Positions 3,999 through 5,156 of a DNA stretch of 64,000 bases are shown here, one piece after another. The notes under the pieces are model-generated. The model searched no databases, was not told the DNA's origin, and was given only the letters and a program-made list of their open reading frames with translations. This DNA comes from Candidatus Poseidoniaceae archaeon (GTDB lineage: Archaea; Thermoplasmatota; Poseidoniia; Poseidoniales; Poseidoniaceae): assembly GCA_964228815.1 (NCBI GenBank), contig CAXRAL010000009.1:5377-69376 (forward strand), read 5' to 3'. The stretch's first letter is position 1. Every line of letters starts with the position of its first letter. Both the position numbers and the translations under genes were made by a program.

Positions 3999-5156
3999 TC
4001 AGTCTTCTTTTCGTTCAAAGGAACGAGGCGCTCTGAAATCACGTGGTGGACGGTTATGGGCATGGCCGGAGCGCTTGCCTTTGGCCCTTCGGAAGCTTCC
4101 ATCGGAGGAGTCACGGCGTTGTGGACCTCGTCCTCCGCGCGGGCCATCGCTTCGGCCGCCCTGAGTCCGACCTTGTCCTCGGTCACCGCCGTCTCGCCGT
4201 CCGCCATCTCGGAACCCTCGGTTTCCTCCGCTACGCTGGCCGCCGTAGGAGGAGCGTCGGTCACCGCCTCGGTCACCACGATCGTTTCGGTACCCGCCAC
4301 CTTGACGTCGGTCGTTGCGTTGGCCGCCGTAAGAAGAGCGGCCTCCACTTCGATGCCCACCGCCACCGGCGCCACCCGGTCGGGGGGCTTCGCACCGGTT
4401 GCAGGCGTTTCGGAACGAGAAGTTGGAGTTGTTGCACTGCGGGCAGGTCCAATCGTTGTCGTTGAACGTGCCTCGCTGGGATCGGCCGTTATCTCGACCG
4501 CCTCGGTTGTCACGACCTCCCTGCCGATCATTGAAGCGTCGATCTCCACCACGGTCGTTTCTGAATCCGCGATTGTCACGGCCACCACGGTCGTTTCTGA
4601 ATCCCCGGTTGTCCCGTCCACCACGGTCGCTGCGCTGGCCGCCACCGCCAGGCCGGGGCTCTTCGCAGCGGTTACAGACCGTGCGGCGGGCAAAGTTGGA
4701 ATTGTTGCATTTCGGGCAGGTCCAATCGTCGTAGGTTGGCGGGCCCCTGCCGCCTTGACGGTCGTTGTAGCGTCGGTCCCCACCTCGGTCGTTTCGGTAA
4801 CCGCGATTGTCACGTCCGCCCTGGCGGTCGTTGTAGCGTCGGTCTCCACCTCGGTCGTTTCGAGACCCTCGGTCGTCGCGCCCGTCTTGACGTCGATCTT
4901 GGCGCTGTTCGGTGGGCTTTTTCTTGGCTCGAACGGACACCGAGACGCCGATCAGAGCGTCCATGTCCAGTGAGCGGTCGATGTGAGCCACGTGAGCGAG
5001 GGGCCGGTCGGTGCTGCCGATGACGCCGTCCACCTTCCCGATGTAGGTGCCGTCGTCGGCCCGGATCATGATGGCGTTCAAGGCCGGCGAAGAACCGTCA
5101 AAATGCACGAGCAGGCCACCTTCGTGGCTTTTTGCTTCAACCGTGCCTGTGAACAT
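3999..5156 (-). CDS. Gar1-like (H/ACA RNP) N-terminal barrel fused to RGG/RDN repeats and two RanBP2-type zinc fingers
   Basis: The N-terminal 80 aa ([56 protein letters not shown]...LIGVSVSV) follow the archaeal Gar1 pattern G.V....G.L.V....LN......IGKV.DV.GP...P...V. Two exact W-x-C-x2-C-x3-N-x6-C-x2-C motifs are present: [21 protein letters not shown] (nt 4665-4724) and [21 protein letters not shown] (nt 4395-4451). The remainder is R/G/D/N repeats. Confidence 0.65.
   Translation of the reverse strand: [385 protein letters not shown]
4546..4630. repeat. In-frame 36-bp tandem coding repeat ([12 protein letters not shown] units) inside the Gar1-like gene
   Basis: Unit 4546-4581 (ccaccacggtcgtttctgaatccgcgattgtcacgg) is followed by the near-identical unit 4582-4617. 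A third, partial copy starts at 4618. More diverged copies occur throughout about 4000-4900. Confidence 0.8.

Follow-up and report, generated by a model that had tools for sequence, protein, structure and literature searches.

A gene that joins a Gar1-type β-barrel to two RanBP2-type zinc fingers and long arginine/glycine-rich (RG-rich) linkers was found in a 64,000-nucleotide (nt) stretch of Candidatus Poseidoniaceae archaeon (GenBank assembly GCA_964228815.1, contig CAXRAL010000009.1, positions 5,377 to 69,376), the whole of which is referred to here as the window. The encoded protein of 385 amino acids (aa) is probably the Gar1 orthologue of the Marine Group IIa (MGIIa) Poseidoniales, a subunit of the H/ACA ribonucleoprotein (RNP), and carries a lineage-specific C-terminal tail for tethering RNA; both the H/ACA role and the tethering we infer. 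A preliminary description, made from the sequence alone, had pointed to this open reading frame (ORF) as a eukaryote-style architecture in an archaeon. The ORF at positions 3999 to 5156 is present as described, intact on the minus strand, with 385 codons and a stop; it starts at the first ATG downstream of an in-frame stop and has no in-frame upstream extension. The host is a Poseidoniales archaeon, as judged by homologue and locus searches. In the papers and preprints that we searched, no description was found of a Gar1 with RanBP2 fingers or of RanBP2 fingers in Poseidoniales, and archaeal RanBP2-type fingers were mentioned there only for unrelated proteins, e.g., Nob1 and ArnA.

A Gar1-type barrel at the N terminus

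An AlphaFold2 (AF2) model of aa 1 to 80, built from a 15-sequence alignment, had a predicted local distance difference test (pLDDT) score of 92.9 and a predicted template modeling (pTM) score of 0.81. When this model was compared with the PDB by Foldseek, ranks 1 to 12 were all occupied by Gar1 or Naf1. The best matches were to Gar1 of Pyrococcus furiosus (2ey4_D/C and 2hvy_B), with template modeling (TM) scores of 0.76 to 0.79 relative to the query (TMq) and 0.83 to 0.84 relative to the target (TMt) and a root mean square deviation (rmsd) of 1.6 to 2.0 Å over 75 to 77 columns. These were followed by eukaryotic Gar1 (TMt, 0.52 to 0.69) and then by Naf1, and generic small barrels, such as the N-terminal domain of the F1-ATPase β subunit and RimM, had TMq values of at most 0.61. 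It is close to certain that aa 1 to 80 adopt a Gar1-type fold, as modeled, and the match of the predicted structure is specific to Gar1 over Naf1 or generic barrels.

Comparisons of sequence were less conclusive. A phmmer search of the PDB with aa 1 to 86 found nothing, and a profile of the family placed P. furiosus Gar1 in the correct register at an E value of only ~0.3, behind chance matches to archaemetzincin and LeuRS. When the family alignment was compared by hhalign with P. furiosus Gar1, whose sequence had been checked against 2hvy_B, 61 columns aligned in register (P value, 7.6e-4); the short forms from Marine Group IIb (MGIIb), described below, also aligned in register, with a probability of 71% and an E value of 3.8e-5. 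Gar1 was the top or only Pfam family for the barrel in 15 of 15 diverse homologues (best E value, 7.7e-6) and the sole Gar1-type Pfam match in 10 of 10 distant homologues, and two short relatives carry precomputed matches to PF04410. Sequence searches alone are insufficient; the fold comparison is decisive for the barrel. The Gar1-like N terminus of the preliminary description is therefore upheld by its fold, although the domain stays under the gathering threshold of PF04410. The same shortfall is what speaks for the alternative considered there, a generic small barrel, against which the structure match ranks Gar1 and Naf1 above generic barrels.

Two RanBP2-type zinc fingers

Zn_ribbon_RanBP (PF00641) was the sole Pfam family above threshold in the full protein, matching two stretches with 63.3 bits against a cutoff of 27 (E value, 1.1e-17). 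No RNA recognition motif (RRM) was detected in that scan, and an NCBIfam scan of the whole protein returned no meaningful match. The strict pattern W-x-C-x2-C-x3-N-x6-C-x2-C occurs twice, at aa 145 to 164 (nt 4665 to 4724) and aa 236 to 255 (nt 4392 to 4451), and nowhere else in a six-frame translation of the window. The preliminary description had reported two exact fingers and quoted the sequences between their cysteines; both fingers and both quotations are accurate. On their sequences, it is close to certain that these are two genuine RanBP2-type fingers, here called ZnF1 and ZnF2.

The best PDB matches of ZnF1 were to TAF15 (E value, 1.6e-6; 31 bits), finger 1 of ZNF265/ZRANB2 (3.9e-6), finger 2 of ZRANB2 (9.2e-6), and RBM10. 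ZnF2 was most similar to the FUS finger (6g99; E value, 4.5e-8; 36 bits), followed by ZRANB2. The proposed likeness to ZRANB2 and to FUS/EWS/TAF15 thus agrees with the closest solved relatives. Identity to the FUS and TAF15 fingers, counted from the alignments, is 58 to 61%, with 18 identical residues over ~31 aligned between ZnF2 and FUS, and it is suggestive of a possible derivation of the finger from a eukaryote. A viral source was also sought, and a tblastn search of 50,697 phage records gave no match to the finger module.

Modular, multivalent recognition of single-stranded RNA is established for fingers of the ZRANB2 class, and the fingers of ZRANB2, EWS, and FUS bind GGU with micromolar affinity, an aspartate (D4) contacting guanine and two asparagines (N14 and N24) reading U3 (PMC6384913). 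Fingers of the GGU-type subclass (ZRANB2, FUS/EWS/TAF15, and RBM5/10) contact RNA through an Asp that precedes the Trp, Asn14, an aromatic residue lying between two guanines, Arg19/Arg20, and Asn24; the corresponding, presumed GGU-contact positions are occupied by D, N, F, (R)R, and N in both fingers of the archaeal protein. Five positions (D0, N8, F11, R14, and N18) were mapped to GGU contacts through alignments to ZRANB2 and FUS and through structure 3G9Y, from which the roles of the aromatic residue and the arginine pair are taken. In a set of 164 unique family fingers, D0, N8, N10, F11, R14, and N18 are conserved at 97 to 100%, and the finger consensus ends in [AS]-[FR]-R-x-E-C-N-R-C, with position 19 being F in 76% of fingers, as in FUS, or R in 18%, as in ZRANB2. 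Strong grounds are thus given by sequence for expecting the archaeal fingers to bind single-stranded RNA.

The class of RanBP2 fingers also includes protein-binding members, and the fingers might instead bind protein or DNA, as do the NZF fingers of Npl4 and TAB2 or those of Nup153, so that the tail would recruit a partner or chromatin. Nup153, RNF31, and TAB2/3 do appear lower in the PDB match lists, and the fingers of some relatives are without the RNA-contact residues. The top matches, however, are of the RNA-binding class, with E values 2 to 4 orders of magnitude better than those of the ubiquitin-binding NZF fingers (TAB2/3 and RNF31). The Ran-binding Nup153 fingers were mostly poorer as well, with the exception of 3gj8_B (E value, 1.4e-4), which ranked narrowly above the FUS finger for ZnF1. 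Together with the near-invariance of the residues aligned with GGU contacts and the context of an RNA modification protein, this makes protein or DNA binding quite improbable.

A repetitive, disordered tail with a conserved end

In the full-length AF2 model, which was built from 35 sequences, the protein resembles beads on a string, with the barrel and both fingers at block-mean pLDDT values of ~77 to 92 and the three linkers below 50. The tail (aa 81 to 385) consists of 23.9% R, 21.6% G, 11.8% D, and 8.9% N, with 77 basic and 42 acidic residues, and its recurring unit is RDNRG[FY]RNDRGG. It contains 18 RG and 8 RGG motifs, one tri-RG, and 8 di-RG. Since the RGG motifs lie at least 12 residues apart, no di- or tri-RGG boxes (RGG-x0-4-RGG) of the eukaryotic glycine/arginine-rich (GAR) or RGG domain type are present in the tail. 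The RGG repeats of the preliminary description are accordingly retained as an RG-rich repeat tail but not as classical RGG boxes: the tail is an RG/RD-rich (and RN-rich) polyampholyte and not a copy of a eukaryotic GAR domain. RG tails as a lineage-wide trait were considered and rejected: no other ORF of the window is RG-rich or has a RanBP2 motif.

At the DNA level, the 36-bp tandem units noted earlier were recovered by Tandem Repeats Finder within linker 2 (Table 1). The larger duplicated module of repeat plus finger is also real, as a 107-nt direct repeat in which ZnF2 (nt 4366 to 4472) and ZnF1 (nt 4639 to 4745) lie 273 nt (91 codons) apart, but with 74% nucleotide identity this duplication is not recent here, contrary to what had been proposed.

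The tail ends in a conserved, basic, histidine-rich element that was previously unremarked and is called here GHAHN. R356, G360, K361, H365, A366, H367, N368, and P371 are invariant in 35 homologues, the tails of which cannot be aligned elsewhere. Most MGIIa homologues have the motif, and degenerate versions of the form GH[AH][HS]..P.[DN]PF were found in MGIIb relatives. A sequence search of the PDB with the motif, up to an E value of 10, gave no match; a suspected likeness to the N terminus of ribosomal protein eL29 was dropped after that search.

Repeat turnover and reliability of the assembly

Genomes that are 98 to 99% identical at the level of the barrel differ by whole repeat units. Locus L007 encodes 385 aa, like the window, whereas L002 (373 aa) is without one 12-aa unit and L006 (442 aa) has an extra, near-identical module of ~85 aa that includes a finger; both changes map to linker 2. 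These strain-level insertions and deletions of whole units agree with the repeat expansion that had been proposed. Among the 80 loci examined (see below), complete genes encode 302 to 457 aa with one to three fingers, and up to five fingers occur in the wider set.

The repeats are also a source of error. In 19 of 56 parsed loci, the contig ends inside the gene, usually shortly after the barrel (L005, L008, L009, L015 to L017, L025, L029, L036, L038, L042, L043, L047, L058, L061, L067, L074, L077, and L079). The RG/ZnF repeats therefore routinely break short-read assemblies of metagenome-assembled genomes (MAGs), so that many database entries of the family are truncated and exact copy numbers, including that of the window, are uncertain. 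Frameshifted or chimeric database calls within the family include P0048, P0065, P0067, and P0130.

These broken loci and faulty entries, together with the long shadow ORFs that overlap the region, are what could be cited for an artefact of assembly or gene calling, or a decaying gene, in which collapsed or chimeric repeats were joined to a short gar1. Hundreds of independent assemblies nevertheless agree: the frame is intact, the finger residues do not vary, and the C-terminal motif that follows the repeats is conserved. The downstream gene also lies in conserved synteny. Protein P0001, which comes from an independent MAG, shares the length of 385 aa and has 97% identity to the window protein, and since L007 has this length too, the gene is not an artefact of one assembly. 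An artefactual tail, which the preliminary description had named as a possibility, is therefore hardly credible.

Distribution and orthology within Poseidoniales

A search of 5.8 billion proteins yielded 338 homologous clusters at 90% identity, the closest of them 97%, 86%, and 85% identical to the window protein. The named homologues are almost all from Candidatus Poseidoniales, Poseidonia, or "Euryarchaeota archaeon" marine MAGs. One or more strict RanBP2 fingers, up to five, occur in 119 of the 120 clusters listed, and, allowing for short extensions or truncations, the same N-terminal domain opens all except P0043 and P0067, which are misassembled or frameshifted. The names given to these proteins in databases include "hypothetical protein," "zinc finger protein," "zinc finger Ran-binding domain-containing protein," and, at JGI, "rRNA processing protein Gar1." Precomputed domain annotation of the homologues shows PF00641 only; the architecture is hidden in current annotation because its Gar1 half is sub-threshold in Pfam. 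It had been cautioned that the architecture might be common and already annotated across archaea; it is indeed order-wide in Poseidoniales but annotated only piecemeal.

When GTDB species were scanned, with one genome for each, the N-terminal domain proved to be encoded in 289 stretches, and the best 80 of these 289 were examined. All were from Marine Group II MAGs save one contig labelled Verrucomicrobiales. This contig (L014, NZEQ01000076.1) contains the complete archaeal synteny block, with 77 to 89% protein identity to the window, and one family member (P0006) bears the label Woesearchaeota; in both cases the DNA appears to be from Poseidoniales and misbinned. In some representative MAGs, the whole locus is present two or three times (L020, L021, and L030 in RS440; L024 and L034 in SAT1329; L040 and L042 in bin_220). 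In these, the flanking genes are the same and the sequences differ, which indicates composite multistrain bins rather than paralogues.

The gene order around the gar1-like gene is highly conserved. A block of genes for an ATP-binding cassette (ABC) ATPase, an ABC-2 permease, a 661-aa secreted or anchored protein, the gar1-like protein, and a TPR/membrane protein was found in 76 to 80 of the 80 loci. The gene for the 661-aa protein adjoins the gar1-like gene in all 80, and the TPR neighbor is present in 53, the remainder being mostly cut by contig ends. The block also surrounds a distant four-finger member (L082). In the MGIIb locus L081, a homologue of the 661-aa protein (28% identity; E value, 1e-63) is encoded immediately upstream of the gene, with a 4-nt overlap. 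Since MGIIb keeps this neighbor, the locus is orthologous throughout the order.

Distant members of the family, the named ones being from Thalassarchaeaceae (MGIIb), are short proteins that begin with a barrel of the SHEGGLL type and have K/R/S-rich tails with zero to three fingers, which are sometimes degenerate. A search seeded with peripheral members gave 64 matches of 47 to 140 aa, in Marine Group II only. The MGIIb versions of 93 to 140 aa, several of them without fingers, are encoded on contigs of 1.5 to 2.5 Mb and resemble ordinary archaeal Gar1. Finger number varies from zero to five across the order. These short Thalassarchaeaceae forms link the family to ordinary archaeal Gar1. A profile of the barrel, searched against 1.84 billion representative proteins, had 123 matches, all within the Poseidoniales subfamily, and reached no canonical Gar1 at significance.

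One Thalassarchaeaceae protein (P0208, locus L081, positions 5001 to 5648) has a single degenerate finger, WVCSACRSMNSRTSKCSKC, which is sub-threshold in Pfam at 20 bits. Its four cysteines are kept, and the Asn, Phe, and Arg RNA-contact residues are lost. The sequence suggests that in this lineage selection on RNA binding was relaxed or function changed.

The simplest reading of this distribution is that the Poseidoniales hold one divergent Gar1 lineage, that the Gar1 tail acquired RanBP2 fingers before the order diversified or early in that process, and that the finger-plus-RG module has since been amplified in Poseidoniaceae, where it is still turning over.

Gar1 function and the H/ACA context

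In the H/ACA pseudouridylation RNP, a particle of Cbf5, Nop10, L7Ae, and guide RNA, archaeal Gar1 binds the catalytic domain of Cbf5, controls the thumb loop, and speeds catalysis and product release (PMC4551948, PMC8096250), and it contacts neither guide nor substrate RNA (PMC4551948). Gar1 is described as the only H/ACA protein without RNA contacts. The RGG domains of eukaryotic Gar1, in contrast, appear to interact with substrate RNA and to modulate turnover; such extensions are considered specific to eukaryotes, with an evolutionary link to further features of eukaryotic small nucleolar RNPs (PMC8096250).

If the Poseidoniales protein is the Gar1 of these archaea, its barrel would keep the binding to Cbf5 seen in P. 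furiosus, while the fingers would bind single-stranded GGU/GGN stretches of pre-rRNA or other substrates, each with micromolar affinity. Multivalency would raise avidity, as would the RG-rich linkers, which could add non-specific affinity for RNA and reach, and GHAHN may be an additional contact site. The RNP would thereby gain a multivalent tether that captures, holds, or locally concentrates substrate RNA, a role functionally analogous to that of the GAR/RGG domains of eukaryotic Gar1. The length of the tail presumably changes by replication slippage or unequal recombination in the repeats.

Several observations weigh against this assignment. For the Poseidoniales protein itself, we infer binding to Cbf5, to zinc, and to RNA alike. 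PF04410 matched the barrel with only 14.0 bits against a cutoff of 29.3 (E value, 0.04) and was sub-threshold in every relative scanned directly, at 15 to 22 bits in distant relatives. Neither cbf5, nop10, nor l7ae was present among the 40 larger ORFs of the window that were scanned, a search that did not extend to small ORFs (as nop10 and l7ae would be) or to Poseidoniales genomes. A second, canonical gar1 might lie elsewhere in the genome; no paralogue of the gar1-like gene was seen in the loci examined (64 kb and flanks of up to 10 kb), and archaea are generally known to have a single gar1. With 12% Asp and without di- or tri-RGG boxes, the linkers are not equivalent to eukaryotic GAR domains. 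Finally, since some MGIIb fingers are without RNA-contact residues, the fingers are dispensable in part of the order.

Part of this evidence would also fit a neofunctionalized Gar1-fold protein that acts outside the H/ACA RNP as a general RNA chaperone or scaffold, with a separate canonical Gar1 serving Cbf5. The barrel is divergent, its PF04410 scores being sub-threshold in all members scanned directly; its profile is limited to 123 of 1.84 billion representatives and reached no canonical Gar1 at significance; and no H/ACA partner gene lies nearby among the larger ORFs scanned. On the other hand, the fold match is specifically to Gar1, the loci examined contain no paralogue, and the short members of 93 to 140 aa have the appearance of ordinary archaeal Gar1, give a better alignment with P. 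furiosus Gar1, and in some cases carry PF04410. That this is the single Gar1 of the genome is indirectly supported by the presence of one syntenic locus per genome and by the canonical look of the short MGIIb orthologues. We consider neofunctionalization doubtful and retain a Gar1 subunit with an RNA-tethering tail as the probable assignment.

Comparison with known Gar1, FET, and ZRANB2 proteins

The Poseidoniales protein shares with archaeal Gar1 (P. furiosus; 2EY4, 2HVY, and 3HAY) a predicted six-stranded barrel (TM score, 0.78 to 0.84; rmsd, 1.6 to 2.0 Å over ~75 residues), an in-register alignment that includes the G-x-V-x-D-V-x-G-P/S region, and a layout in which the barrel stands at the extreme N terminus and is followed by a basic tail. 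It differs in having only ~20% identity and a sub-threshold Pfam score, and, whereas the solved archaeal Gar1 chains are of 73 to 104 aa and have no fingers, it adds 305 residues with two fingers, linkers, and GHAHN.

With eukaryotic Gar1 (yeast 3U28 and the human telomerase H/ACA lobe), it has in common a Gar1 core and Arg/Gly-rich extensions that are probably disordered and interact with RNA, as its own would be expected to do. The archaeal extension, however, is C-terminal only, combines its Arg and Gly with much Asp and Asn, and has no di- or tri-RGG boxes, and it includes folded zinc fingers, of which eukaryotic Gar1 has none. The archaeal tail and the eukaryotic GAR domains are almost certainly of independent origin.

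The combination of RGG repeats and RanBP2 finger had been called the hallmark of FET-family proteins (FUS, EWS, and TAF15). A segment with a GGU-class RanBP2 finger inside RG-rich disordered sequence is indeed shared with them, but no SYGQ-rich domain, RRM, or PY-type nuclear localization signal (PY-NLS) was detected in the Pfam scan, the segment is fused to a Gar1 barrel, and the first knuckle of the archaeal fingers is C-x2-C rather than the C-x4-C of FET fingers. The protein is not a member of the FET family. With ZRANB2 (ZNF265) it shares at least two tandem fingers and the signature D-W...N-x-N-[FW]-A-R-R...N, and ZnF1 has the NFARRT core of ZNF265 finger 1. ZRANB2 acts in eukaryotic splicing as an SR-like factor and has an RS domain at its C terminus, whereas the archaeal protein has no splicing context, and its linkers of ~60 to 90 aa are much longer than those of ZRANB2.

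A bolder possibility is that the FET/ZRANB2-like module was captured from a eukaryote or arose by convergence and that the tail drives an RNA-dependent, condensate-like clustering of H/ACA RNPs on nascent rRNA. This would be a prokaryotic counterpart of the nucleolar dense fibrillar component, with the rapidly varying number of fingers and repeats tuning avidity. We regard it as unlikely.

Organization of the locus

The features of the gene and its neighbors are given in Table 1. The TPR gene, which is the downstream neighbor in Poseidoniaceae, and the gar1-like gene are possibly co-transcribed.

TABLE 1 Coordinates of the gar1-like gene, its parts, and its neighbors in the window
Feature	Positions (nt)	Strand	Basis
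Complete coding sequence, 385 aa: Gar1-like barrel, RG-rich linkers, two RanBP2 fingers, and C-terminal motif	3999..5156	-	ORF list, sequence, homologues
Gar1-type six-stranded β-barrel (predicted), aa 1-80, with invariant SHE-G-LL and G-K-V-D-x-V-x-G motifs	4917..5156	-	AF2, Foldseek, Pfam, hhalign
Linker 1, aa 81-141, predicted disordered, R/G/D/N-rich, one 22-aa unit present twice	4734..4916	-	pLDDT <50, direct repeats D1/D2/D4, composition
RanBP2 zinc finger 1 (ZnF1), aa 142-171, ZRANB2/TAF15-like NFARR type	4644..4733	-	PF00641, PDB matches, pLDDT 85-92
Linker 2, aa 172-232, predicted disordered, with 12-aa repeat units	4461..4643	-	pLDDT <50
36-bp tandem repeat, 2.3 copies, 91% matches, encoding 12-aa units	4546..4629	-	Tandem Repeats Finder, score 140
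RanBP2 zinc finger 2 (ZnF2), aa 233-262, FUS/EWS-like NFS[FW]R type	4371..4460	-	PF00641, PDB matches, pLDDT 78-91
Linker 3, aa 263-353, predicted disordered, G/R/S/D-rich	4098..4370	-	pLDDT <50
Conserved C-terminal GHAHN motif, aa 355-375	4032..4094	-	35-sequence alignment, pLDDT 58-71
Upstream neighbor, 661 aa, with N-terminal hydrophobic segment and C-terminal hydrophobic anchor; no Pfam family	5206..7191	-	Synteny context only
Downstream neighbor, 346-aa TPR and multi-pass membrane protein (Pfam TPR_19/TPR_14), 14 bp past the stop of the gene	2944..3984	-	Conserved context

An A/T-rich element, CAAAAGTACTT, was noticed by eye at positions 5182 to 5193 on the minus strand, ~26 to 37 nt 5' of the ATG in the 49-bp intergenic spacer. 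It lies where an archaeal TATA box would be expected if the leader were very short, and it is a candidate for such a box. No clear Shine-Dalgarno sequence was read before the ATG. Shadow ORFs of 111 to 305 aa occur in other frames or on the other strand of the GC-rich repeats, at 3989 to 4849 (minus strand) and at 4056 to 4973, 4399 to 4734, and 4043 to 4465 (plus strand).

The G+C content at third codon positions (GC3) is 0.585 in the tail (positions 3999 to 4916), 0.775 in the barrel part (4917 to 5156), and 0.70 to 0.73 in neighboring genes. The low value of the tail could be due to foreign origin or to codon copying in composition-biased repeats; as evidence of transfer, GC3 is confounded by the extreme amino acid bias and the copying of repeats, and no conclusion was drawn from it.

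Elsewhere in the window, an ORF at 57121 to 57672 (plus strand) has an Alba domain (Pfam, 51.9 bits; aa 83 to 133) and is over-extended at its 5' end, where its first ~76 codons overlap tRNA-Gly(GCC) at 57206 to 57280 (plus strand). The Alba protein probably starts at Met77, at about position 57349, and it has no RG-rich tail.

Implications

Poseidoniales are generally regarded as ecologically dominant in surface ocean waters. A prokaryotic Gar1 with an RG-rich disordered tail contradicts the textbook view of such extensions as eukaryote-specific, and the fingers within it, in a prokaryotic, non-Asgard order, belong to a class whose other known carriers are eukaryotic splicing and FET proteins. 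The finding bears on whether RGG/ZnF modules are eukaryotic inventions, interdomain transfers, or products of convergence. With orthologues that have zero to five fingers, the order offers a natural series, with built-in controls, for the effects of such extensions on an RNA-guided modification enzyme.

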